Below the pieces are notes generated by a model that saw nothing but the letters and a program-made list of their open reading frames with translations, was not told the DNA's origin and searched no databases. A program made the translations under genes and the position numbers. Below are positions 27,031 to 37,896 of a stretch of 64,000 bases of DNA, one piece after another. The DNA is from a virus. Numbering within the stretch: the first letter of the stretch is position 1; every line of letters begins with the position of its first letter. The stretch covers positions 1-64,000 of the IMG/VR virus record IMGVR_UViG_3300016466_000841, one strand, 5' to 3'.

Positions 27031-27101
27031 TCTCGGGTTCGTCGCTAAATAATTTTATATTATATTTCCTAAGTTGTAATCCAGTCAACCATACAAATTC
27101 A

Positions 27102-28268
27102 ATGAATAAAATATTAAACCCAAAAAAAGATCGTTTTGGTTTTTATCTTGTCAACGGCTTTAAAACCTACAGCAAGGTCGAGGCTCTCGAAATAGCGACA
27201 GCGACCAATCATCCAGTAAAATGGATTTTCAATGACCTAGAATTTTCATCTCACGATTGGACCAAAGAACCAACCGAATCTCTGCCGGAATTGTATGCCG
27301 CGAGAGCTCGGCAGATTAGAGAATCCTATGACCACGTCGTGATATTCTATAGTGGCGGAGCCGATTCAGGCAATGTAGTCAACAGTTTTGTAGACAACGG
27401 AGTTCCATTTGAAGAAATAGCCACTTACAACTATTGGAAGGCCGATCCAAGAAAAGATACATACTTCCACGGCGAACAAACAAAAGTCAGCTATCCCCGT
27501 ATCAAAGAACTGCAGGACCGTGGTATTAAATTTTTACATAGACCCATCGATCTTTCTGACATAGCCTATGACATCTTCACGGATGATTACTGGTCGACCA
27601 ATCGGGCTTATTATGCCAATGGCCATTGGGGAATGACTCATCTAGCAAAAAGTTATATCAGAGAACGAGTCGACGATTATAAAAAAATAATTGAAAGCGG
27701 AAAAAAATTGGTATTTGTTTGGGGCAGCGAGAAACCCAGGATAACCTATAAACAATCCACAGACCAGTATTTTTTTAGATTTGTCGACAACATCGACAAC
27801 GGAATAAGCACTCGACAATTGCTACTATCTCGGGAAGAGGAACATGACGAATTGTTTTACTATAATCCCAATTGCGCCAAGCTACTTTGCAAACAAGGAC
27901 ACACGATCATGAATTTTTTTCGACAACACAAACAAATGGAAGTAGAGCAATTATACACAGAAACAAAATTACCCGACATAAACTTCATGTTCGACAATTC
28001 TGTCACCGACGATGGTCTCTTCTATAGAAATTTATTGAATTGGTTAATATATCCTAAATTTGATTTCCAGATGTTTACCTTGGGAAAACCATGGAGTGCA
28101 GTCTACAGCCCCAGAGATGAAGTTTGGAGCAAAGACATAGTTTTTTCTTCCCAGATCAACAACCTAGCAGGACATCTTTCAAGTCTTGATAAAAAATGGT
28201 GGAGAGATCCCAACGATATCAACAAAGGGTTAACACACATCATGTCGCGACCATATGCTTTGTGCTGA
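27102..28268 (+). CDS. PP-loop protein, paralogue 3
   Basis: IFYSGGADS; opposite strand to the tRNAs; TAAATA upstream. Confidence 0.75.
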   Translation: MNKILNPKKDRFGFYLVNGFKTYSKVEALEIATATNHPVKWIFNDLEFSSHDWTKEPTESLPELYAARARQIRESYDHVVIFYSGGADSGNVVNSFVDNGVPFEEIATYNYWKADPRKDTYFHGEQTKVSYPRIKELQDRGIKFLHRPIDLSDIAYDIFTDDYWSTNRAYYANGHWGMTHLAKSYIRERVDDYKKIIESGKKLVFVWGSEKPRITYKQSTDQYFFRFVDNIDNGISTRQLLLSREEEHDELFYYNPNCAKLLCKQGHTIMNFFRQHKQMEVEQLYTETKLPDINFMFDNSVTDDGLFYRNLLNWLIYPKFDFQMFTLGKPWSAVYSPRDEVWSKDIVFSSQINNLAGHLSSLDKKWWRDPNDINKGLTHIMSRPYALC

Positions 28269-28270
28269 TA

Positions 28271-28467
28271 TGAGTTAGAGTCAAAGGCACCGTCCTGTGT
28301 TTAAAAGGGTTCACTCATCGTCGTCCCTTCCCCACGAACATACTCATCCTGTAGCCAGCAGGCACGCCCGGATAATGGGTGTAGCGGCCCGGGGTGGATC
28401 TCTCCCCTAACGGTTGGGGTATGGCTGGCTAAGCCGTTCTTTCGCTCACGCCTTTGACTCTAACCCA
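28271..28467 (-). ncRNA. Candidate ~200-nt structured ncRNA
   Basis: Terminal inverted repeat GTTAGAGTCAAAGGC/GCCTTTGACTCTAAC and internal TAGCCAGC/GCTGGCTA helix. Confidence 0.6.
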
Positions 28468-28471
28468 CGAT

Positions 28472-28556
28472 TGGTGCGACTGGCCAGAATCGAACTGGCA
28501 CGCCCGAAAGCGAGAGATTTTAAGTCTCTTGTGTCTACCGATTTCACCACAGTCGC
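28472..28556 (-). tRNA. tRNA-Leu(UAA)
   Basis: Class II cloverleaf, anticodon TAA. Confidence 0.9.
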
Positions 28557-28557
28557 T

Positions 28558-28640
28558 TGGTGCCCCAGGAGAGACTCGAACTCTCACGCACTAGGCACCG
28601 GTTCCTAAGACCGGCGTGTCTACCATTCCACCACCAGGGC
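28558..28640 (-). tRNA. tRNA-Leu(UAG)
   Basis: Anticodon TAG. Confidence 0.9.
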
Positions 28641-28842
28641 ACGGTGTATTCTCTGATTATACAGCAAAGAAAAAAAGAAAACAATCAAATTGGATGGGAA
28701 AATACTAAAATAACCAATCACAGGATTTGCTGAAAGTGATCATGTAATAGCATCCAAGAAATTCTCCGGTATAATAAAGCACGACCATCAGCAACGCCAT
28801 CGCTGCTATTATGAATTTTTCTTGCATGACATTTTCCTTGAT

Positions 28843-28921
28843 TGGTGCCGACTCCTGGAATCGAACCAGGTTCCCGGGCTCTTCAGACCCGTGCTGAAAT
28901 GACCACACTAGCTCAGTCGGC
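28843..28921 (-). tRNA. tRNA-Phe(GAA)
   Basis: Anticodon GAA. Confidence 0.85.
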
Positions 28922-28932
28922 AAATTATTTTT

Positions 28933-29009
28933 TGGGGTGAAGGACGAGAGTTGAACTCGCTCTACCTGTTTCACAGACAAGTGTGCTGAACCGTTACACT
29001 ACCAACACC
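28933..29009 (-). tRNA. tRNA-His(GUG)
   Basis: Anticodon GTG, G-1:C73; two mismatches in the acceptor stem. Confidence 0.8.
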
Positions 29010-29024
29010 ATGGGAATCTTCTGT

Positions 29025-29099
29025 TGGCCTCGCTGCCCAGAATCGAACTGAGATCTTGACCTTAGGAGTGTCGTGTTCTATCCGTTGAACTACAGCGAG
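29025..29099 (-). tRNA. tRNA-Arg(CCU)
   Basis: Anticodon CCT; imperfect anticodon stem. Confidence 0.75.
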
Positions 29100-29100
29100 A

Positions 29101-29340
29101 TCAAGCCCAAGTCATCACAAACAATAATCTATCTTGATCCCATCTAAATCCCACGCCGATTCGGTGGGTGTAACCAGAGTCTGCCCATGCCCAATGGCTG
29201 AAGTGTGGCCCGACATTGAGCAACAGCCAATGCTCTATCGTCTCCACTCCTTGTACCCAATCGAGCTGATCTCGATCAGTCATGGGCCAAGGTACCGAAG
29301 CCAAATGATCAAACCCAGAATGTTCGACCAACATGCGCAT
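29101..29340 (-). CDS. Small protein related to the FxLRWS family
   Basis: Ends FRWDQDRLLFVMTWA; TAAATA 5 nt before the ATG. Confidence 0.55.
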   Translation of the reverse strand: MRMLVEHSGFDHLASVPWPMTDRDQLDWVQGVETIEHWLLLNVGPHFSHWAWADSGYTHRIGVGFRWDQDRLLFVMTWA

Positions 29341-29352
29341 GCAAATATTTAT

Positions 29353-29429
29353 TGGTCCGAGTGGAGAGATTCGAACTCCCGACCCTCTGCTCCCAAAGCA
29401 GATGCGCTACCAGACTGCGCTACACTCGG
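29353..29429 (-). tRNA. tRNA-Pro(UGG)
   Basis: Anticodon TGG. Confidence 0.9.
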
Positions 29430-29435
29430 ATGGGT

Positions 29436-29509
29436 TGGTGCCCCGGCGGTGAATCGAACACCGGACTCATGCTTACAAGGCAAGTGTTATACCACTTAAC
29501 TAACAGGGC
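29436..29509 (-). tRNA. tRNA-Thr(UGU), second divergent copy
   Basis: Anticodon TGT. Confidence 0.8.
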
Positions 29510-29561
29510 CGGACCATATAGAAACACACTCATTGACGTTGATCTCAAATGTGTTTTTATA

Positions 29562-29636
29562 TGGTAGGGGCGGGGAATTTCGAAATCCCGACTCTCTGGT
29601 TAAAAGCCAGATACTCTGCCTCTGAGTTACGCCCCC
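29562..29636 (-). tRNA. tRNA-Lys(UUU)
   Basis: Anticodon TTT. Confidence 0.85.
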
Positions 29637-29691
29637 AGAAATTTACCACTCTTGTCACTGGACATGACAGTCTCTCCTTTGAAAAAATGTA

Positions 29692-29767
29692 TGGCTGGGG
29701 ATGATGGACTCGAACCACCGAATGCCGGAATCAAAATCCGGTGCCTTACCAACTTGGCGAATCCCCA
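29692..29767 (-). tRNA. tRNA-Gln(UUG)
   Basis: Anticodon TTG, U1:A72. Confidence 0.9.
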
Positions 29768-29772
29768 ATGTA

Positions 29773-29848
29773 TGGTGGAGCCGACAGGGATCGAACCTGC
29801 GACATTCTGCTTGCAAAGCAGACGCTCTCCCAACTGAGCTACGGCCCC
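29773..29848 (-). tRNA. tRNA-Ala(UGC)
   Basis: Anticodon TGC, G3:U70. Confidence 0.95.
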
Positions 29849-29861
29849 ATATTTTAGAACA

Positions 29862-29936
29862 TGGCCCGACCGGAGGGAATCGAACCCCCATTATGGGCTT
29901 AGAAGACCCTTGTATTATCCATTATACGACGGTCAG
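29862..29936 (-). tRNA. tRNA-Arg(UCU)
   Basis: Anticodon TCT. Confidence 0.85.
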
Positions 29937-29942
29937 ATTGTT

Positions 29943-30017
29943 TGGTGCGGGATCACGGTTTCGAACCGCGGACCCTCTGAATGTAAATCAGATGCTCTAC
30001 CCCTGAGCTAATCCCGC
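29943..30017 (-). tRNA. tRNA-Val(UAC)
   Basis: Anticodon TAC. Confidence 0.9.
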
Positions 30018-30032
30018 TTTATATTTTTATTC

Positions 30033-30107
30033 TGGAGCGGGTAGTCGGATTCGAACCGACGGCATTTTCCTTGGCAAGGAAACATTCTACCCCTGAATTA
30101 TACCCGC
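30033..30107 (-). tRNA. tRNA-Gly(GCC)
   Basis: Anticodon GCC, U73. Confidence 0.9.
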
Positions 30108-30113
30108 ATCGTA

Positions 30114-30344
30114 CTATTTGACTTTATTGAGATACTCTCGACCATAACGGCCTTCCTGCAATTCCAACAATGCTGTTACCACAGGCAATGCATGACTGGT
30201 CAGCTGGCTTTCTTTGTGATGACGAGAGATTTCTCTGGCTCTCGCTGATGCCATAAGGATCATGTCATATTTGTTGCCGGCATTTTCTGAGCAACGTTGT
30301 ATGTCAAGCAATGGTGTGCGACTGGGTATGAGTTTGTTAGACAT
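30114..30344 (-). CDS. RNA polymerase omega subunit-like protein
   Basis: NKYDMILMASARAREI...PVVTALLELQEG matches the RpoZ core pattern. Confidence 0.7.
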   Translation of the reverse strand: MSNKLIPSRTPLLDIQRCSENAGNKYDMILMASARAREISRHHKESQLTSHALPVVTALLELQEGRYGREYLNKVK

Positions 30345-30361
30345 GTTGTTTCCTTTGTGTG

Positions 30362-30925
30362 TTATTTTAAAATGAATCCGATTCTGTCACCGCATCTGCT
30401 TTCGTAAAAATTTTCTTTCCAGACTGGCACAATCTCTTCACTGTCATGGTTGCTAAAATCATCATTGTAACGCAGGTGTGCTTCGATTACTTTGTCGCCG
30501 ATCACTTCTACATTAAACCACTCATATCTGTCGGCCACTTGTTGCAGGCTGGGTGGAAGATCAAATGTGTCTGAGATTTTTTTCCATCTAGAAAATCGAT
30601 CTAATCTTTCGGGATCGTCCCGGAACCCTTCTGCTGCCAAGGTCTGTTTGCCATAATTATAATCAAAGGTCATGTGCCTACCAAAAAACAGTTCGCACCA
30701 AAAAAATCCATCTGGCACTTGGCTTTCATGATCTATGTAGACTACACCAGCACCGCGGCTCATCATCCTGAAGTTCACACAAGGTCTCACGATGTATCGT
30801 CCAGGTCGGGGCGGTACAGTTCCTGCGGGGCCGCAATCGTAACCCAGGCTCTTGGACAGTATGAATTTGTCATAGATCCAAAGATCTCTTGGCTGGATAA
30901 AGTCTAAAACATCAATGTCGTCCAT
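30362..30925 (-). CDS. Hypothetical phage protein (ATP-grasp-like)
   Basis: YIVRPCVN...NVEVIGDKVIEAHLRYN. Confidence 0.55.
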   Translation of the reverse strand: MDDIDVLDFIQPRDLWIYDKFILSKSLGYDCGPAGTVPPRPGRYIVRPCVNFRMMSRGAGVVYIDHESQVPDGFFWCELFFGRHMTFDYNYGKQTLAAEGFRDDPERLDRFSRWKKISDTFDLPPSLQQVADRYEWFNVEVIGDKVIEAHLRYNDDFSNHDSEEIVPVWKENFYESRCGDRIGFILK

Positions 30926-30938
30926 GCATGCCTCAATT

Positions 30939-31012
30939 TGGAGCGGCGAGCGGGAATCGAACCCGCGCGATCAGCTTGGAAGGCTGAAGTTCTACCATTA
31001 AACTACCGCCGC
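30939..31012 (-). tRNA. tRNA-Gly(UCC)
   Basis: Anticodon TCC. Confidence 0.9.
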
Positions 31013-31014
31013 AT

Positions 31015-31593
31015 TTATTTGAATCTTGGTCCTGCTACCCACCCCACCAAACTCATTCGCTGACCCGACGTCACTGGTGTGACTTCGTGCAACACCCAGC
31101 TGGGAAAAAATATCAATTTTCCTCTTTCTTTTGGCGCTACGGTTGGCTGTTCTCCAAAATAAAGTTTCAAGTCACCGCCCTCATAGTCGTTGGGATTTGA
31201 TAATTGTAAAACAAAACTCAATTTTCTGCAACCACCTATTCGCTCACCTATGTCGAGATGTGGACCATACTTTCCATTCGCTTGCCCAAAATACTGAGTA
31301 AATTGTAAATCTTCGATGTGAGTGAGGTCATAATGGAAATATTTGTCATTTACTGTTTTGATGTTCCAGGTCAAGGTGTTGTAGATCCAAGAACAGTCTG
31401 GGTCAGTGGACTTTAACCACGCGATATTACTGAGCCTATGACCTGGCGAGGCTGCGATCGCCTCGCCAGGTATGCCTGGCATTGACCGCCCTAGGTCAAT
31501 GATTTTATCAAGTTCGTCGTTGGAAAACATGTCGGCTCTCCAAGTCCAGAACTTGTTGTCGGGTGGCGGATCTAACAGCCAGGTCATTGTCAA
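31015..31593 (-). CDS. 2OG-Fe(II) oxygenase (PKHD / prolyl hydroxylase-like)
   Basis: HLD, RKLS, YEGGDL, FPSWVLHEVTPVTSGQRMSLVGW. Confidence 0.9.
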   Translation of the reverse strand: MTMTWLLDPPPDNKFWTWRADMFSNDELDKIIDLGRSMPGIPGEAIAASPGHRLSNIAWLKSTDPDCSWIYNTLTWNIKTVNDKYFHYDLTHIEDLQFTQYFGQANGKYGPHLDIGERIGGCRKLSFVLQLSNPNDYEGGDLKLYFGEQPTVAPKERGKLIFFPSWVLHEVTPVTSGQRMSLVGWVAGPRFK

Positions 31594-32060
31594 GCCACTC
31601 GTGTGATACTCTTTAGACGATCGGCAGCATAACTGGCCGCGAAGGCTCTAGGCTTGACCATGGGTATCACATTGCATGTTCCACGTATGTAACCAATAGC
31701 TTGACCAATCACACAACTCGATCCGTGCATTTCGTCGGGGTTGATGTCAAGATGCACTTCCACTTCACGATCTTCCAATGCCGGGGCAAGCCGTTGGAAC
31801 ATTTCTGATACACGGTACACTTCGTTCATGAGCCGCATGCTGGGACGATCGGCTTTTTGATCGTAGTCTCTTTCTCTGGAAACTTCTCCAAAAATCTTGC
31901 AACCGTGGCGCCCGCCGATGTGCACCACTATGGCCACTGTGTATTCGGCCCACCATACTTTGTCAGACTTGTAGCGTTCTGAGTCAGCGCCGAGATAGAC
32001 ACGAGTACCTGGAGGTTGAGCTTGTATGAATCCTACCACTTGATCGATGTCAATTTTCAT
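31590..32060 (-). CDS. RNase H-like YkuK/DUF458 family protein
   Basis: YLGADS, RLMNEV, EVHLDIN, AASYAAD. Confidence 0.8.
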   Translation of the reverse strand: MKIDIDQVVGFIQAQPPGTRVYLGADSERYKSDKVWWAEYTVAIVVHIGGRHGCKIFGEVSRERDYDQKADRPSMRLMNEVYRVSEMFQRLAPALEDREVEVHLDINPDEMHGSSCVIGQAIGYIRGTCNVIPMVKPRAFAASYAADRLKSITRVA

Positions 32061-32091
32061 GATATCCCTTTGCTGTATTTACATTGACTCT

Positions 32092-32168
32092 TGGCCGGTC
32101 CGGCAGGATTCGAACCCACGACCTCCTGTTTCGAAGACAGGCACTCTGTCCAACTGAGTTACGGACCG
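32092..32168 (-). tRNA. tRNA-Arg(UCG)
   Basis: Anticodon TCG. Confidence 0.85.
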
Positions 32169-32172
32169 CCGA

Positions 32173-32264
32173 TGGTGGAGAATGTGGGATTCGAACCCAC
32201 GGTACTGGTTACCCAATACGACGGGTTAGCAACCCGCTGCCTTCAGCCTCTCAGCCAACTCTCC
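32173..32264 (-). tRNA. tRNA-Ser(GCU)
   Basis: Anticodon GCT, long variable arm. Confidence 0.9.
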
Positions 32265-32280
32265 AATTTGAAAAATATGA

Positions 32281-32355
32281 TGGTACACCGTAGGGGAATC
32301 GAACCCCTCTTACCTGCGTGAAAGGCGGGTGTCCTAACCGATAGACGAACGGTGC
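32281..32355 (-). tRNA. tRNA-Glu(UUC)
   Basis: Anticodon TTC. Confidence 0.9.
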
Positions 32356-32396
32356 CTAGTACTTTAGTACAACTAGATTCGGTAAATAGCTAAACA

Positions 32397-32999
32397 ATGC
32401 AGTTACAATTTAATAAAATACGCGATTTTGTTTATTCTGTCAACCTCGATGTGCAGGTCGACCATGCCACTGTTTCAACAGCCCTAGAAAAAGAAACTTG
32501 GATTCCAGATCGGGCGGCCTACGGACAGGCCGATTTCGCGAGCCGATACTATCTTGAATGGAATAAAATTTCTGGTCCTGTGCTACGAGATCTGCAAGGT
32601 TGGGCCTGCTCGGACTCGTTCCGTAGGAGCGTGATCGATCAGCTCTACAGCGAACCTACTTTTGCCGAGTACTGGAGCATTGATCCCGAAACCATGTTTG
32701 GCATCACGTCAAGCTCGGGTCAATTCCTCAAAGATTTACCGGGATTCGGAGCCGGAATACACCTTGATAATCGATTACAAGTCGCCTCGGGCATGATCTA
32801 TTTCATCAATGGCGACGACGAAAATCAAAGCACGGTTTTTTATCGCGACCAAAACAAACGCTCACCGGCAAGGATACCCACCGGTCATGGTCGAGGTTGG
32901 ATCGCTGCCAACATGCACGACAGCTGGCACGATGGATGGAATCACAGTGATCAACCGCGCTACAGCATGATCTTAAGCATTGGTCTCAGGATCAATTAA
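32397..32999 (+). CDS. 2OG-Fe(II) oxygenase-like protein
   Basis: IHLDNR...SWHDG...PRY; antisense within the tRNA array; TAAATA 8 nt before the ATG. Confidence 0.7.
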   Translation: MQLQFNKIRDFVYSVNLDVQVDHATVSTALEKETWIPDRAAYGQADFASRYYLEWNKISGPVLRDLQGWACSDSFRRSVIDQLYSEPTFAEYWSIDPETMFGITSSSGQFLKDLPGFGAGIHLDNRLQVASGMIYFINGDDENQSTVFYRDQNKRSPARIPTGHGRGWIAANMHDSWHDGWNHSDQPRYSMILSIGLRIN

Positions 33000-33002
33000 A
33001 TC

Positions 33003-33079
33003 TGGCTACGGCGGAGGGATTCGAACCCCCAACATACAGTTTTGGAGACTGTCGTTCTGCCAGTTGGAACTACGCCGTA
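33003..33079 (-). tRNA. tRNA-Trp(CCA)
   Basis: Anticodon CCA. Confidence 0.9.
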
Positions 33080-33086
33080 ATGTCAT

Positions 33087-33174
33087 TGGAGGAAGAGGTG
33101 GGATTCGAACCCACGGACCCTTGCGAGCCGCTGGTTTTCAAGACCAGAGCCATAGACCACTCGACCACTCTTCC
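33087..33174 (-). tRNA. tRNA-Ser(UGA)
   Basis: Anticodon TGA, long variable arm. Confidence 0.9.
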
Positions 33175-33179
33175 ATTAT

Positions 33180-33284
33180 TGGTGCCATGCTCTGCTTCGA
33201 AACAGAGCTCTCGTTGCAGTTTGAGAGGCTTCGTGGCTAGCATCGAGAGGCCGTCCTGCCACAGCGTAAGGCGACGCTGTGCAT
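33180..33284 (-). ncRNA. tRNA-like small RNA (T-arm and ACCA, no normal D-arm or anticodon)
   Basis: 3' end CTCTGTTTCGAAGCAGAGCATGGCACCA, located between two tRNAs. Confidence 0.5.
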
Positions 33285-33286
33285 CT

Positions 33287-33367
33287 TGGTGCCCCTAATC
33301 GGATTCGAACCGATAGTTATGACACTCCTTTTGAGAGAGCCGCCTTTACCAATTTGGCCATAGGGGC
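33287..33367 (-). tRNA. tRNA-Leu(CAA)
   Basis: Anticodon CAA, short variable arm. Confidence 0.85.
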
Positions 33368-33369
33368 AT

Positions 33370-33446
33370 TGGTGGTGATGGAGGGATTCGAGCCCCCGAT
33401 CTTCCGCGTATGAAGCGGCTGCATTCACCAGCTATGCTACATCACC
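33370..33446 (-). tRNA. tRNA-Met(CAU), elongator (Ile2 not excluded)
   Basis: Anticodon CAT, paired 1:72. Confidence 0.8.
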
Positions 33447-33512
33447 TTATTGTGCATTGTCTTTGATCCATTGCCAACGTTCTTGTTGAGTCATGGTCGT
33501 TCTCCTTGTTTA

Positions 33513-33589
33513 TGGTGCCTGTTCGTGGGTTCGAACCACGGACCCCCGCGTTATCAACACGGTGCTCTGACCTGCTGAGCTAAACAGGC
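33513..33589 (-). tRNA. tRNA-Ile(GAU)
   Basis: Anticodon GAT. Confidence 0.9.
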
Positions 33590-33591
33590 AT

Positions 33592-33686
33592 TGGTACTCC
33601 CACTCAGATTCGAACTGAGATCATCCCCTCATCTAGAGGCATCGCCGGAGTATAAGGCCGGAGCTTTACCATTAAGCTATGGGAGC
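33592..33686 (-). tRNA. tRNA with UAU anticodon (nominally Ile) and long variable arm
   Basis: 95 nt; loop CT-TAT-AC; variable-arm hairpin CCTC-TAGAT-GAGG. Confidence 0.8.
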
Positions 33687-33690
33687 AAAT

Positions 33691-33768
33691 TGGAAGTGAG
33701 AGTGGGATTCGAACCCACGGTTGTGCTGCTTTGCAGGCAGTTGCCTTGGACCGCTCGGCCATCTCACT
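33691..33768 (-). tRNA. tRNA-Cys(GCA)
   Basis: Anticodon GCA, U73. Confidence 0.85.
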
Positions 33769-33773
33769 GTGTT

Positions 33774-33849
33774 TGGCTGTCCAGGCTGGGCTCGAACCAG
33801 CGACAGGGTGATTAACAGTCACCTACTCTACCTACTGAGCTACTGGACA
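33774..33849 (-). tRNA. tRNA-Asn(GUU)
   Basis: Anticodon GTT. Confidence 0.9.
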
Positions 33850-33857
33850 ATGAAACT

Positions 33858-33932
33858 TGGCGGTCCCAAGGGGAATCGAACCCCTCCATCCGCCGTGACA
33901 GGGCGGTGTACTAACCGATATACTATGGGACC
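33858..33932 (-). tRNA. tRNA-Asp(GUC)
   Basis: Anticodon GTC. Confidence 0.9.
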
Positions 33933-33940
33933 AAAACTGG

Positions 33941-34330
33941 CTAATTCAAAAGATATTCGTTATATTTCTCCCCACCAATATTGATTTGTCCTTTTGTGGT
34001 CAATACATTATGGGGTATCAGTGCTTGTTTTCCTGTGACAAGATGATGTAAAAAAATCAAATCCCAATTTTGTTGTTGGATAGTCTTGGATGGTTTATTG
34101 AAAGACATGTTTCCGCCCTTGACGTCGGCATTGAACATCATTATTCCACTTTCTTTGAGTTGGTGCGATGTCTTGACTTGGACTTTTTTGAGAATTCCGT
34201 CCATTTCCACAATCAAATCCCAATCAGCACTATCTGTCAAAGGAAGTGCTACATCATAACCTTTTGAAGTGAAATAGGCAATCGCTTGTCCTAATCCAGC
34301 ATCACCTTGCTTTTTACTATTTTTGAACAT
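33941..34330 (-). CDS. PD-(D/E)XK endonuclease (homing-type, free-standing)
   Basis: KQGDAG...GYDVALP...DLIV...KVQVKT motif; AT-rich insert between tRNA-Tyr and tRNA-Asp. Confidence 0.8.
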   Translation of the reverse strand: MFKNSKKQGDAGLGQAIAYFTSKGYDVALPLTDSADWDLIVEMDGILKKVQVKTSHQLKESGIMMFNADVKGGNMSFNKPSKTIQQQNWDLIFLHHLVTGKQALIPHNVLTTKGQINIGGEKYNEYLLN

Positions 34331-34375
34331 ATCAGTCTCCTTTGTTTTATTTAGCGGACTGATAGTCTGTTATAT

Positions 34376-34462
34376 TGGTGGGTGCCCACGGATTCGAACC
34401 GCGAAGGCCAAAGACAAGAGATTTACAGTCTCCCCCCGATACCGTTACGGGACTAGACACCC
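34376..34462 (-). tRNA. tRNA-Tyr(GUA)
   Basis: Anticodon GTA, variable arm. Confidence 0.85.
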
Positions 34463-34467
34463 AAAAA

Positions 34468-34672
34468 TGGCGGTTCTTGTGGACTTTCACCACACTCTTG
34501 CAGTCTGAGAGCTTTACCAGTGTCCCGTATCGTCACCGGTCAGGGCTATTGTCGGGGGTTGCATGACGACCTAGTCTAGACATTGCGTGTGACTAGCACG
34601 CCTGTTTCCATCCTGTCCATCACTACCTGGCAGGGAACTGAGAGCTCAGAAGGAGTACCTTACCGGAGAACC
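34468..34672 (-). ncRNA. ~205-nt RNA with tmRNA-like architecture
   Basis: Acceptor GGTTCT/AGAACC-GCCA, T-like arm TGTGG-TGAAAGT-CCACA, long interrupted helix, internal pseudoknot. Confidence 0.6.
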
Positions 34673-34922
34673 ATATTGAAACACACTGATTGAACCATTA
34701 CCTCTTTCGAGTCCGTCCTTACCGTCGGGCGTTAAACAATGTGCTTCAATATGGCACCACAGAACACAGTCTATACGAAATGTGTTTTGTGGTCAACCAT
34801 AGACAGGATCGTGTCCTGCCCCGGAGTCTTACTGGTGCCGTTTCCGCCAGCACTGTCATGTATCCGGTCCGCCCGTTCGTCTTTTTATTCTACGCTGACT
34901 TGGCCCTCGTTGCCTGGCGTAT

Positions 34923-34957
34923 AAAACAAAAAACCCTGGTATCTTTCGATCCAGGGT
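34923..34957 (-). terminator. Intrinsic terminator (attenuator) upstream of the tRNA array
   Basis: ACCCTGG-ATC-GAAA-GAT-A-CCAGGGT-TTTTTGTTTT. Confidence 0.85.
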
Positions 34958-35000
34958 CCCGGTAGTTTGAACTGATTACAACTCGATCTACTCGGACCCT
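34953..35000 (-). promoter_or_regulatory. Antiterminator hairpin overlapping the leader stop codon and terminator 5' arm
   Basis: AGGGTCCGAGTAG pairs with CTACCGGGACCCT (11 of 13 positions), capped by GAGTTG-TAAT-CAGTTC. Confidence 0.7.
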
Positions 35001-35116
35001 CCATGATCACTATTCTCAATGGCACGGGTATATCCAAAAGAGGGCCATAGTGTTAGGCCGCCCTGTGCTGGACATGCATGCATCTTCGATATGAGTGATA
35101 AGTGTTGAGTCATCAT
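34988..35116 (-). CDS. Putative 42-aa leader peptide of the tRNA operon
   Basis: MMTQHLSLISKMHACPAQGGLTLWPSFGYTRAIENSDHGGSE*; ATG 7 nt after the -10 box. Confidence 0.65.
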   Translation of the reverse strand: MMTQHLSLISKMHACPAQGGLTLWPSFGYTRAIENSDHGGSE

Positions 35117-35123
35117 AGTATCT

Positions 35124-35152
35124 ATTGTATGAGTTTATTTATACCTTGTCAA
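35124..35152 (-). promoter_or_regulatory. Composite promoter of the tRNA operon
   Basis: TTGACA-17nt-TACAAT with T4-type late element TATAAATA inside the spacer (35136-35143). Confidence 0.85.
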
Positions 35153-35162
35153 CGGCTTTTGG

Positions 35163-35190
35163 AAAAAACCCTACCAAAAGTAGGGTTTTT
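35163..35190 (-). terminator. Intrinsic terminator after ahpF
   Basis: AAAAACCCTAC-loop-GTAGGGTTTTT; separates ahpF from the tRNA promoter. Confidence 0.8.
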
Positions 35191-35193
35191 GGT

Positions 35194-36705
35194 TTAATTG
35201 CGTATGATGTAGTCAAATGCTCCTAGTGCGGCAGTGGCACCCGATCCCATGGAGATGATGATCTGCTTGTAAGGCACATTGGTGCAGTCGCCGGCAGCGA
35301 ACACACCCGGCATGGTGGTGGCACCATGACCATCCACGATGATCTCGCCGTAGCGTGTGCGGTCCACTGCACCCTCCAGCCAGTCAGTGTTGGGCACCAG
35401 GCCGATCTGGATGAAAACACCTTCCAAGGCCAGATGCTGGTTGATGCCAGTATCTCGCTCAGTATAAGTGATGCCCGTGACCTTTTCTACTCCGGTTATC
35501 TCTGTGACCTGCACATTGGTATAGACGGTGACATTGGACAGACTTTTAAGACGATTCTGCAACACTTGGTCGGCTTTGAGTTTGGGCATGAACTCAAACA
35601 CAGTGACATGCCCAACGATACCAGCGAGATCGATGGCTGCTTCCACGCCCGAGTTACCACCACCGATCACTGCCACATGTTTTCCTTTAAACAAAGGACC
35701 GTCACAGTGTGGGCAGTAAGCGACACCGCGGTTCTTGAACTCTTCTTCGCCAGGCACGCCGAGATTGCGCCATCTAGCACCTGTGGCAATGATCACTGTC
35801 TTAGACTTGAGGGTGGCACCTGACTCCAGTTCTACTTTGATCTGACCGTTTTTCTCGATGCGAGCAGCTCGTTGCAGGTTGAAGATGTCTACAGGGTACT
35901 CCTTGACATGTTCTTCGAGACTGGCAACGAGTTTTGGCCCTTCGGTGTATTTCGTGCCGATTAGATTCTCAATGCCCATGGTGTCCATGACCTGTCCGCC
36001 AAAGCGTTCAGCAACGATGGCAGTGCGGATGCCTTTGCGAGCAGCATACACAGCGGCCGCGGCACCAGCGGGTCCGCCACCCACCACCAAGACATCATAC
36101 TCGCGGCCATCGATGTCTGAGACATCTGCGGCACTGCCCAACCGGGCCAAGATCTCTTCTACGGTCATGCGGCCTGACCCAAAGGCGTCACCGTTGAGCC
36201 ATACACTGGGAACTGCCATGATGTTGCGATTGGTGGCTTCTTCTTGGAAAGCCGCACCGTCGATCATCACATGGGTGATGTTGGGATTCAACACTGCCAT
36301 GGTGTTGAGTGCTTGTACCACATCAGGGCAGTTATGACAAGTGAGACTGATGTAAGTTTCAAAACGATATTCGCCGCGCAGAGCCTTGATCTGCTCAATG
36401 ATCCGGTCGTCGATCTTGGGTTTCCTGCCACTGACCTGTAGCAAAGCCAATACAAGACTAGTGAACTCGTGTCCAGTGGGCACACCTGCGAAAGTGATCC
36501 TGTCTCCTACACGGAAACTGGGAGTGCGTGGCAGTTGCCCGGGCTCGATGGTGATGAGGTCTGTCATGCCAGCAATCTCATGCAAGAGATCCAACATGGC
36601 TTGGCTGGTCTCGTCTACACCTGCTCGCACGGTGATGGCAACAGGTCCTTCCAGTAGTCGTAGATACTGCTCAAGTTGTTGTTTTATTGATTGTTCTAAC
36701 GGCAT
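35194..36705 (-). CDS. ahpF: Alkyl hydroperoxide reductase subunit F
   Basis: [39 protein letters not shown]. Confidence 0.95.
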
Positions 36706-36708
36706 TGA

Positions 36709-37329
36709 TTACGCTCTTCCTGATGCTAACACAATGTGACAGATATGCTCTAGTCTTTCTATATGTTCAAACGCACGCCAAGGTGTAGTGTCCACGGCTA
36801 CTACACCGTGTCCTTTGATACCCACAATATCGTAGTCAATATTACCTTCTCTGTCTAATTTTAAAGCACGATGACATTCATCAGCCAATTCCTGACTTAT
36901 AGGAGGTACATCTCCTACATTGGGCGCCACTCGAGTGTATCTACTGAGTTCAGGAAAGTCTTGAACCAAATCCTGTAGCACTATTCCTCGATGCATGGCA
37001 GCCACGGTATAGGTAGGATGGAAATGCATGACTACTCGAATATCGTTTCGATGCTGCCCCATTTCTCGTTGTAGACCAAAATGCAGTGGCAACTCACCAC
37101 TGGGACGAAGATTGCCACTGAGATCATCCTGTTCTATCGCTTCGGCATGATCCCCCACGATACGCATTTTTTTAAACATATCGTACTGCATTTTCTGTTT
37201 GCGGACACCGCTAGGCGTGATGTAAAAATGATCACGATCGTGATAGCGTATGCTGACATTGCCGTCACGACTGGTAATCCAGTTACGCCGATAGGCCTCT
37301 ACCATGGTATCGCATATGGTTTCTAGCAT
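36709..37329 (-). CDS. Class II aldolase/adducin family protein
   Basis: DGNVSIR, ITPSG, PSGELPLH, HFHP, KGHGVV. Confidence 0.85.
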   Translation of the reverse strand: MLETICDTMVEAYRRNWITSRDGNVSIRYHDRDHFYITPSGVRKQKMQYDMFKKMRIVGDHAEAIEQDDLSGNLRPSGELPLHFGLQREMGQHRNDIRVVMHFHPTYTVAAMHRGIVLQDLVQDFPELSRYTRVAPNVGDVPPISQELADECHRALKLDREGNIDYDIVGIKGHGVVAVDTTPWRAFEHIERLEHICHIVLASGRA

Positions 37330-37332
37330 GGC

Positions 37333-37896
37333 TTAGATTTTGCCTACGAGGTCCAAGCTGGGGGTCAGAGTGGCAGCGCCTTCTTTCCACTTGGCCGGGC
37401 ACACTTGACCAGGATTGGCGGCTGTGTACTGTGCGGCCTTGAGCTTGCGCAGGGTTTCGCTGACGTCACGGGCGATCTCGTTGCTGTGTACTTCAGCAGT
37501 TTTCACGATGCCTTCGGGATTGATCACGAATGTACCACGCAGGGCCAGGCCTTCTTCTTCAATGTGTACACCAAAGCCACGGCTCAAGGTGTGTGTGGGA
37601 TCGCCCACCAGGGGAAAGCGAGCCTTGCCCACAGCAGGGCTTGTTTCATGCCAAACCTTGTGGCTGAAGTGTGTGTCTGTTGTGACGATGTAAACTTCGG
37701 CGCCCATCTTTTCGAACTGGGCATAGTTGTCAGCGGCATCTTCGATCTCTGTGGGGCAGTTGAAGGTAAAGGCCGCGGGCATGAAAATGAACACATTCCA
37801 CTTACCTTTGATGCTTTCATTGCTGACTTCTACGAACTTTCCGTTGTGGTAGGCTTGTGTTTTGAACTCGGGTACTGCTTGATTAATGATACTCAT
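37333..37896 (-). CDS. ahpC: Alkyl hydroperoxide reductase subunit C (peroxiredoxin)
   Basis: FTFNCPTE, VCPAKW, LDLVGKI. Confidence 0.95.
   Translation of the reverse strand: MSIINQAVPEFKTQAYHNGKFVEVSNESIKGKWNVFIFMPAAFTFNCPTEIEDAADNYAQFEKMGAEVYIVTTDTHFSHKVWHETSPAVGKARFPLVGDPTHTLSRGFGVHIEEEGLALRGTFVINPEGIVKTAEVHSNEIARDVSETLRKLKAAQYTAANPGQVCPAKWKEGAATLTPSLDLVGKI

Follow-up and report, generated by a model that had tools for sequence, protein, structure and literature searches.

Organization of the locus

The DNA analyzed in this study is a stretch of 64,000 nucleotides (nt) from a virus (positions 1 to 64,000 of IMG/VR virus record IMGVR_UViG_3300016466_000841), which is referred to as the window. 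The subject is a short element at positions 34923-35152, composed of a promoter, a small open reading frame (ORF), a set of RNA helices, and a transcription terminator, and followed by a large array of tRNA genes. The element and all other features of the window described below are on the minus strand. The complete record has 77,975 bases, is viral, and has an estimated completeness of 22%; it is a fragment of an uncultured giant lake phage. Its tail sheath is approximately 40% identical to that of the Pseudomonas jumbo phage PA5oct group, the nearest cultured relatives as judged by this protein. A blastn search with positions 33900-35250 against 50,697 phage records gave no match, and no second copy of the element was found in the 77,975-base record.

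The element begins with a sigma-70-type promoter (35124-35152) that matches at 11 of 12 positions. The -35 hexamer TTGACA (35152-35147) and the -10 hexamer TACAAT (35129-35124) are separated by a 17-nt spacer containing TATAAATA, and this promoter is the top promoter-like site within 28000-36000. The sequence ATGATG begins 7 nt past the -10 hexamer and opens a leader ORF of 42 codons and a TAG stop codon (34988-35116; TAG at 34990-34988). The promoter, the position of the ATG, the ORF, and the peptide given in the original prediction were all confirmed from the sequence and its translation. Counting also confirmed that the leader uses 34 distinct codons and 19 kinds of amino acid, with Val absent.

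Related copies of the element

Related loci and contigs, all from uncultured phages, are denoted by L-numbers. A search for relatives with the AhpF-like protein, whose gene lies upstream of the element, led to L002, a close copy with 89% identity, and to L007, which is diverged. A 20-mer across the -10 hexamer and the start codon gave 15 stretches in IMG/VR; with slight degeneracy allowed in the 20-mer, 35 stretches were obtained from metagenome contigs. A pattern describing the end of the ORF, which is blind to the promoter and the start codon, gave 9 stretches with 3 new distinct copies. When these were pooled, 45 distinct sequences were obtained, of which four were dropped to leave 41 bona fide copies. 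L036 and L041 have less than 150 nt after the ATG. L046 and L050 were chance matches of the 20-mer, with no -35 hexamer, no terminator, and unrelated surrounding sequence. L040 is included in the counts of ORFs and amino acids but not in those of structures and footprints (n = 40), its T run having been missed by the terminator pattern.

TTGAC is present at the -35 position in 40 of 40 distinct upstream sequences, and it was absent from every search pattern used. The spacing between the -10 hexamer and the ATG is also the same in all 40. A motif ATAAATAAA, which is TATAAATA in the window copy, is found in most copies within the promoter spacer (35130-35146), where its offset differs by a few nt from copy to copy; we take it to resemble the late-promoter motif of T4.

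Maintenance of the leader ORF

In 41 of 41 copies, including the three that were found without reference to the start codon, the ATG that follows the -10 hexamer by 7 nt opens an ORF of 36-43 codons. In the 19 copies from viral contigs this frame has no stop codon, whereas the other two have 62 and 70. When the variable core was shuffled, the frame stayed open with a probability of 0.115-0.17 per copy, and the log10 P summed over 12 lineage representatives, which are not fully independent, was -10.0. The lengths of the leaders vary by whole codons, and the stop codon is mostly the TAG within a conserved helix arm. The open frame in every copy, the lack of in-frame stops, and the shuffle probabilities together argue that the leader ORF is under selection.

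The dN/dS values of close pairs range from 0.05 to 1.17 and are mostly 0.4-0.9. The sequence of the peptide thus appears to be weakly constrained, as is expected of a leader. Searches of Pfam and PHROG gave no match for the leader peptide or for ORF2, a second small ORF that adjoins the element in relatives. Likewise, no homologue of the leader peptide was found among called proteins of near lengths in 5.8 billion clusters. In an alignment, recurring positions are seen at a central YW or LW and at a C-terminal GGSE.

Amino acid composition of the leader

The 41 leaders are nearly complete in their amino acid composition. All 20 kinds are present in 18 leaders, 19 kinds in 17, 18 kinds in two, and 15-16 kinds in the remaining four; that is, 35 of 41 leaders hold 19-20 kinds. 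Independent random peptides of 36-42 residues with the composition of the phage proteins have 15.8-16.5 kinds, with 20 kinds in 0.1-0.7% and at least 19 kinds in 2-6%. Real windows of 38 or 42 residues taken from the phage's own proteins hold all 20 kinds in 0.4-1% of cases. Nucleotide shuffles conditioned on an open frame gave a mean of 16-17 kinds, and shuffles that preserve the base pairs also gave approximately 16-17 kinds (Fisher combined p = 5e-9; 16 representatives). With a lumping clustering (9 single-linkage clusters at 70% identity), at least 19 kinds are found in 7 of 9 clusters. The adjoining ORF2 is longer (51-59 residues) and yet has 14-19 kinds, never 20.

The residues that occur only once in a leader behave differently from the others. 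In 16 disjoint pairs of leaders, these singletons were altered at 33 of 264 positions (12.5%), compared with 157 of 774 (20.3%) for the other residues (Fisher p = 0.004). Furthermore, for 25 of the 33 altered singletons the same amino acid is found elsewhere in the partner. The sole Cys is at position 17 in L025 and L051 and at position 33 in L056, and the sole Tyr is at position 8 in L017 and at position 33 in L024; rare residues are thus found at differing positions between lineages. The completeness above all null models, the protection of singletons, and the relocation of rare residues indicate that selection seems to act on the composition of the leader and not on its sequence, as it would for a test peptide. 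It should be noted that the close relatives L055 and L002 have Val at the position of Ala17 in the window copy.

At the codon level the picture is different. The number of distinct codons is above a codon-usage null in 11 of 19 copies, and GGG, TCA, TCC, and CTA are enriched in the leaders, but these codons are located in conserved helix sequence. Codon diversity was rejected as separate evidence, as it is at chance once the peptide is fixed. Accordingly, the observation in the original prediction that the five Ser and the three Thr codons are all different holds as a count but carries no evidential weight. The claimed match of leader codons with anticodons of the downstream array holds trivially, since tRNAs for all 20 amino acids are present in the array. 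The view that the leader samples the code stands at the level of amino acids and not at that of codons. No run of codons for one sensed amino acid is found in the leader.

These properties bear on a simpler explanation, in which the ORF would encode a functional protein of 36-43 amino acids with its own promoter and an ordinary leaky terminator, while the tRNAs would be made from other promoters or by constitutive read-through. The preservation of the ORF in all 41 copies, the recurring YW/LW and C-terminal GGSE positions, the low dN/dS of some close pairs (0.05 and 0.18), and promoter-like motifs within the arrays of relatives would all be compatible with such a protein. However, most dN/dS values are 0.4-0.9, the rare residues change position from one lineage to another, and there is neither a Shine-Dalgarno sequence nor a Pfam or PHROG match nor a called homologue. 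In addition, the conserved ends of the ORF coincide with RNA helices, and the covariation in the overlap of antiterminator and terminator described below is not expected of a plain gene end. We consider this explanation unlikely.

RNA helices of the element

Four helices are distinguished in the RNA. The first, P0, is formed in folds of the nascent RNA up to the stop codon. Its 5' strand (segment 1, CUAU..GACUC; 35107-35118) contains the start codon, and the partner of this strand is GGGUC..GUAG in the final part of the ORF. P0 has at least six pairs in 32 of 40 copies, and it is predicted from these folds to act as an anti-antiterminator (1:2). The second, P1, is a long imperfect hairpin of the ORF body (35000-35104) in the minimum free energy (MFE) fold. 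A comparable long hairpin is found in the fold of every copy, although the sequences are not alignable.

The third helix, H2, is the antiterminator. Its 5' arm (segment 2; 34988-35000) consists of AGGGUCCGAG and UAG, that is, the last codons and the stop codon of the leader, and its 3' arm (segment 3; 34953-34965) is CUACCGGGACCCU. At the DNA level, AGGGTCCGAGTAG (35000-34988) and CTACCGGGACCCT (34965-34953) pair at 11 of 13 positions. The ACCCU at the end of segment 3 also starts the 5' arm of the fourth helix, an intrinsic terminator (34923-34957) with the structure ACCCUGGAUC-GAAA-GAU(A)CCAGGGU followed by UUUUUUGUUUU. In DNA letters its stem (34957-34933) is ACCCTGGATC-GAAA-GAT(A)CCAGGGT, followed by TTTTTTGTTTT, with ACCCT common to H2 and the terminator. 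The terminator is present in the MFE structure calculated with ViennaRNA, and the isolated hairpin has a free energy of -15.0 kcal/mol. Both the pairing of the ORF end with a segment overlapping the terminator and the terminator itself had been proposed from the sequence, and both are borne out by these results. A simple terminator scan did not list the hairpin 34957-34933, because of its bulged stem and an outer loop longer than 8 nt.

The fold of the whole 203-nt RNA consists of P1, a small hairpin, and the terminator and has a free energy of -64.7 kcal/mol (z = -3.25); none of 200 shuffled sequences was as stable. A GC-rich hairpin with a U run was found by script in 40 of 41 copies, and by eye in the 41st (L040). 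The full-length MFE structure contains the terminator in 33 of 40 copies. When the 3' arm of the terminator was removed, 37 of 40 copies had at least 4 nt of the 5' arm paired with the region of the stop codon, and the stop codon is located 24-33 nt before the terminator arm in 40 of 40. The three exceptions to H2 pairing belong to an odd lineage, in which the pairing partner is further upstream.

This odd lineage comprises the four copies with 15-16 kinds of amino acid (L016b, at 161-344 on the minus strand of L016; L037; L038; and L045). It lacks ATAAATAAA, and the partner of the antiterminator is approximately 25-35 nt before the stop codon. L016 carries both a normal copy and a copy of this lineage. 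The lineage is possibly a degenerate or differently wired version of the element.

Covariation was assessed without alignment, as the lineages are too diverged for consensus folding on alignments made with MAFFT. The duplex energy of the arms of each copy was compared with that of arms swapped among 24 representatives in 20000 permutations. For the antiterminator H2, the cognate energy was -19.95 kcal/mol and the permuted energy -15.96 kcal/mol, and none of the 20000 permutations was as good. For the terminator, the corresponding values were -11.6 and -9.45 kcal/mol, again with 0 of 20000. For P0, they were -7.95 and -7.27 kcal/mol, with 67 of 20000 permutations as good, so that the support for P0 is weaker than for the other two helices. 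Compensation can also be read directly: the pair GGGUCC/GGACCC in the window is GGGUCU/AGACCC in L031 and L015, and the pairs GGGGUUCUG/CAGAGCCCC and GGGGUCUUGGAUA/UAUCCAAGGCCUC are found in L017 and L022, respectively. In the terminator as folded by RNAalifold on the MAFFT alignment, three of ten pairs show compensatory changes. A covariance model (R1) was not used for pair counts owing to reverse-strand matches of the palindrome-like helix and to forced distant rows. Hence P0, the antiterminator, and the terminator all co-vary, and their layout is that of the 1:2, 2:3, and 3:4 pairings of the trp leader. The short ORF, the drifting peptide, the position of the stop codon, and the covarying helices that the original prediction named as points to check in related phages were thus all found.

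In searches of Rfam, only tRNAs reached the gathering score over the whole window, and nothing relevant was obtained up to E = 10 in 33850-35500; the leader and riboswitch families, such as Trp_leader, His_leader, Leu_leader, Thr_leader, and T-box, thus gave no match.

Downstream region and tRNA array

In the window copy the terminator leads straight into a conserved structured non-coding RNA of approximately 460 nt (34463-34922), which is matched in L002 (7982-8527) and L007 (12903-13183) and has no match in Rfam. Over a part of 185 nt, its identity with L002 is 78%. A hairpin GUGC..GAAACGAGG..GCAC is followed by AAACGGGCGGAC...GUAAGACUCC and then by one or two long inverted repeats (CCAUAUUGAAGCACA / UGUGUUUCAAUAUGG), and the L002 stem shows a compensatory change. 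This RNA would be made only on read-through of the terminator.

The first gene of the array is a tRNA-Tyr(GUA) (34380-34462), recognized with the tRNA-Sec model of Rfam at 31.2 bits, which is below threshold. It has a long variable arm and the anticodon loop CUGUAAA. ARAGORN finds 28 tRNAs in the window, all on the minus strand, with none for Tyr; it misses this gene, and it calls the homologues in relatives Tyr. With tRNA-Tyr, the number rises to 29 and every one of the 20 amino acids is served, which agrees with the earlier count. The main array (28472-33932) has 26 further tRNA genes with small ORFs interspersed. The claim that the tRNAs are downstream of the element on the same strand is correct, but they do not adjoin it directly: the first tRNA is 460 nt past the terminator, and the main array comes after an ORF for a PD-(D/E)XK endonuclease.

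Same-strand tRNAs are found within 1.3 kb in 17 of 18 copies having at least 1300 nt of downstream sequence. Up to 25 tRNAs are present in the next 6 kb, and no tRNA is on the opposite strand in the copies with downstream sequence.

In 23 of 32 relatives, ORF2 (51-66 amino acids) starts 9-21 nt after the T run and has its own Shine-Dalgarno sequence. The encoded peptides share the motif ..QL..LI..K.ERA.. (for example, L002 7789-7965; L017 1227-1400, minus strand; L029 1059-1217; and 20 other loci). A promoter would not fit between the T run and ORF2, which could therefore be expressed only by read-through. The window copy has no ORF2. In the 6 kb after the window element, no strict promoter motif (TTGAC-N17-19-TAnAAT) is found on the same strand.

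The arrangement of ORF2 is relevant to a further explanation, that the element is a stand-alone, trans-acting small RNA of approximately 195 nt in which the ORF is incidental or which has a dual function. Such an RNA would be consistent with the strong promoter and terminator of the element and with its very stable fold, and attenuator RNAs can also act in trans, as is reported for rnTrpL (PMC6614838). This would not explain why, in 23 of 32 copies, ORF2 begins too close to the T run to have its own promoter, nor why there are no in-frame stops as against 62 and 70, nor the completeness of the leader. Moreover, the RNA matches no family in Rfam. We regard a stand-alone small RNA as very unlikely.

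Transcripts were also looked for. A survey of sequencing runs gave five runs with shares of 0.05-0.16, and the contigs from four of them were from relatives only. In X4, the one library recorded as metatranscriptomic, a contig of 151 nt on 34891-35027 crosses the terminator, and other contigs are on tRNA-Tyr and the spacer RNA; strand, ends, and level are not readable from any of these contigs, which may also come from DNA carry-over.

Proposed mechanism

We think it fairly probable that the element is a trp/his-type ribosome-mediated attenuator that gates the phage tRNA array and whose leader tests all amino acids. The original prediction of such an attenuator is supported by the ORF in 41 of 41 copies, the covarying helices, the linkage to tRNA genes in 17 of 18 copies, and the completeness of 35 of 41 leaders. 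Host RNA polymerase would start at the sigma-70 promoter, and the transcript would begin at or within a few nt of AUGAUG. In a leader without a ribosome, segment 1 would pair with segment 2, so that segment 3 would be left free to form the terminator (3:4), and transcription would stop. A ribosome running smoothly to the stop codon would cover segment 2, and the terminator would form as well. In contrast, a ribosome delayed anywhere in the ORF by a scarce aminoacyl-tRNA would break the 1:2 pairing and leave segment 2 free. Segment 2 could then pair with segment 3 as the antiterminator, and the polymerase would read into the structured RNA and the tRNA genes and, in most relatives, also through ORF2. 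The result would be a feedback in which slow decoding of any amino acid leads to the production of phage tRNAs. Such slowing could be due to starvation, to tRNA-cleaving defences, or to the decay of host tRNAs. Any slowing of ribosomes would thus probably cause the phage to make tRNAs of its own. Of this scheme, the anatomy and its conservation, the covariation of the helices, the maintenance of the ORF, the composition of the leader, and the linkage to tRNA arrays are observed, and the translation of the leader, the start site, and the response to tRNA supply are inferred.

The effect of a ribosome was modelled by equilibrium folding with a footprint of 30 nt. In 37 of 40 copies, the MFE structure is the terminator when the footprint is on at least the last seven P-site positions, and in 38 of 40 it is the antiterminator at some earlier position. 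The window copy itself conforms less well, as the antiterminator is the MFE structure at only 6 of 43 footprint positions. Its terminator is favoured by 9.4 kcal/mol in the free RNA, and a stalled ribosome reduces this margin only to 6.3 kcal/mol on average. Over all copies, stalling lowers the energy difference between terminator and antiterminator in only 26 of 40. Attenuators are kinetic devices, and hence equilibrium folding neither supports nor refutes the model.

The weak dependence on ribosome position in these calculations would also fit a switch that is real but has another input. The input might be whether translation initiates at all (through host shut-off or ribosome availability), or a phage or host protein, the speed of the polymerase, or temperature, and the amino acid make-up of the leader would then be secondary. 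P0 hides the start codon, so that initiation itself could be the regulated step, and Val is absent from 12 of 41 leaders. With such an input, the 19-20 kinds of amino acid in 35 of 41 leaders and the protection and relocation of singletons are left unexplained, as are the length of 36-43 codons and the stop codon in the arm of H2. This possibility seems rather unlikely to us.

Several other observations weigh, together with the footprint energies of the window copy and the modest share of copies that respond to stalling, against an attenuator that tests all amino acids. Val is missing not only from the window leader but also from 11 others. One whole lineage has only 15-16 kinds of amino acid and an antiterminator shifted upstream. 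The diversity of synonymous codons given the peptide is not above chance. RNAalifold on the MAFFT alignments recovered only the terminator, and nothing with the truncated set. There is no Shine-Dalgarno sequence before the leader ORF, and ribosomes would have to translate it as a leaderless message or initiate on one with a very short 5' leader. The start site at or near AUGAUG is predicted from the position of the promoter, and a longer 5' end could arise if the spacer motif ATAAATAAA acts as an additional, overlapping late promoter. L018 has no tRNA within 1.5 kb. Finally, the arrays of relatives contain 16 strict promoter-like motifs in 73.5 kb; this is far above chance, which means that some of these arrays do have internal promoters.

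Beyond the attenuator itself, we put at about even chances the wider proposal that the element is a universal sensor of decoding capacity. A leaderless peptide would test 20 supplies, and a nearly complete set of tRNAs would be turned on only if one of them fails. This would be an inducible counter to tRNA-cleaving immunity or to loss of tRNAs, and it would be self-limiting once decoding is restored. According to one report (PMC12409363), tRNAs are common targets of bacterial immunity and phage tRNAs are counter-measures. The model predicts that depletion of Val-tRNA induces the copies in L055 and L002 and not that in the window.

Comparison with known systems

Classical attenuators sense one amino acid each and control biosynthetic operons. 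The element resembles the enterobacterial leaders of this type (trpL, hisL, leuL, thrL, pheL, and the multivalent ilv leaders) in having a short leader ORF and the 1:2, 2:3, and 3:4 helices, with 3:4 as the terminator. As in these leaders, a ribosome at the end of the ORF would mask segment 2; termination is expected without translation or with smooth translation, and read-through on stalling. The differences are as follows. The element has approximately one of each of the 20 amino acids and no run of a single one. It has no Shine-Dalgarno sequence, its ORF is of 36-43 codons, and its segment 1 is at the extreme 5' end and includes the start codon. It is carried by a phage, the regulated genes are tRNAs rather than biosynthetic enzymes, and Rfam holds no match for it.

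The leader peptide of pyrBI has 44 codons, and its ribosome overlaps the terminator. The element is similar in its long leader ORF and in its presumed dependence on how closely the ribosome trails the polymerase. Unlike in pyrBI, however, the stop codon is 24-33 nt before the terminator arm, and there is a separate antiterminator helix. T-box riboswitches are also cis-acting antiterminator/terminator switches that report tRNA charging, which would be the input of the element as well. They bind one uncharged tRNA directly and are untranslated, whereas the element has a conserved ORF and gave no T-box match.

Two precedents for leaderless sensory ORFs are found in the literature, namely the polycysteine small ORFs of mycobacteria (10.1101/834739) and rnTrpL of Sinorhizobium meliloti (PMC6614838). 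In these systems, the ORF is at the 5' end of the transcript and its translation decides the fate of downstream genes, as is proposed here.

In PA5oct, the one distant relative that was compared, the 330 nt before the first tRNA contain tandem AT-rich promoter-like repeats and no such ORF and terminator. In searches of the literature, no leader for all amino acids and no attenuator before phage tRNA genes was found. The machinery is that of a classical attenuator; the sensing logic and the regulated genes are new. When and why phages express their tRNAs is a pressing question in the field. If the present reading is correct, a leader for all 20 amino acids before tRNA genes would give an old mechanism a new sensing logic, that is, a general gauge of decoding, and no regulator of a phage tRNA array would have been described before this one. 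The element might also be used as a compact reporter of translation stress.

Neighboring genes and other features

Upstream of the element is a block of ahpC, class II aldolase, and ahpF-like genes (35194-37896). The ahpF-like gene (36705-35194) matches Pyr_redox_2 (9.4e-51) and also Thioredoxin_3. Its protein is 74-92% identical across 12 related viral contigs (L002-L013), from which the peroxide-defence module (ahpC, aldolase, and ahpF-like) appears to be a stable part of this phage group. A terminator scan placed a hairpin with an 11-bp stem at the end of the ahpF-like gene (35164-35190), and this hairpin insulates the element from transcription coming from upstream.

Within the array, the PD-(D/E)XK endonuclease ORF (33941-34330; PF11645, 2.8e-15) separates tRNA-Tyr from tRNA-Asp, which are just 9 nt apart in L002, and the ORF looks like a mobile, homing-type insertion into the array. 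A tRNA-Ile(UAU) of 91-95 nt with a long variable arm (33592-33686) is kept in L002, L007, L017, L021, L023, and L024. A strict TTGAC-N17-19-TAnAAT motif without a leader ORF is found at 27059-27088, just before a lone tRNA-Met (27030-26955), which suggests that this tRNA has a simple promoter of its own.

ARAGORN detected no transfer-messenger RNA (tmRNA) in the window. Permuted, two-piece tmRNAs are present near the ahpF or tRNA regions of L004, L005, L006, L010, L011, L024, and L029, and the tags encoded in relatives include ANDSQFALAA and ANDEQFALAA.

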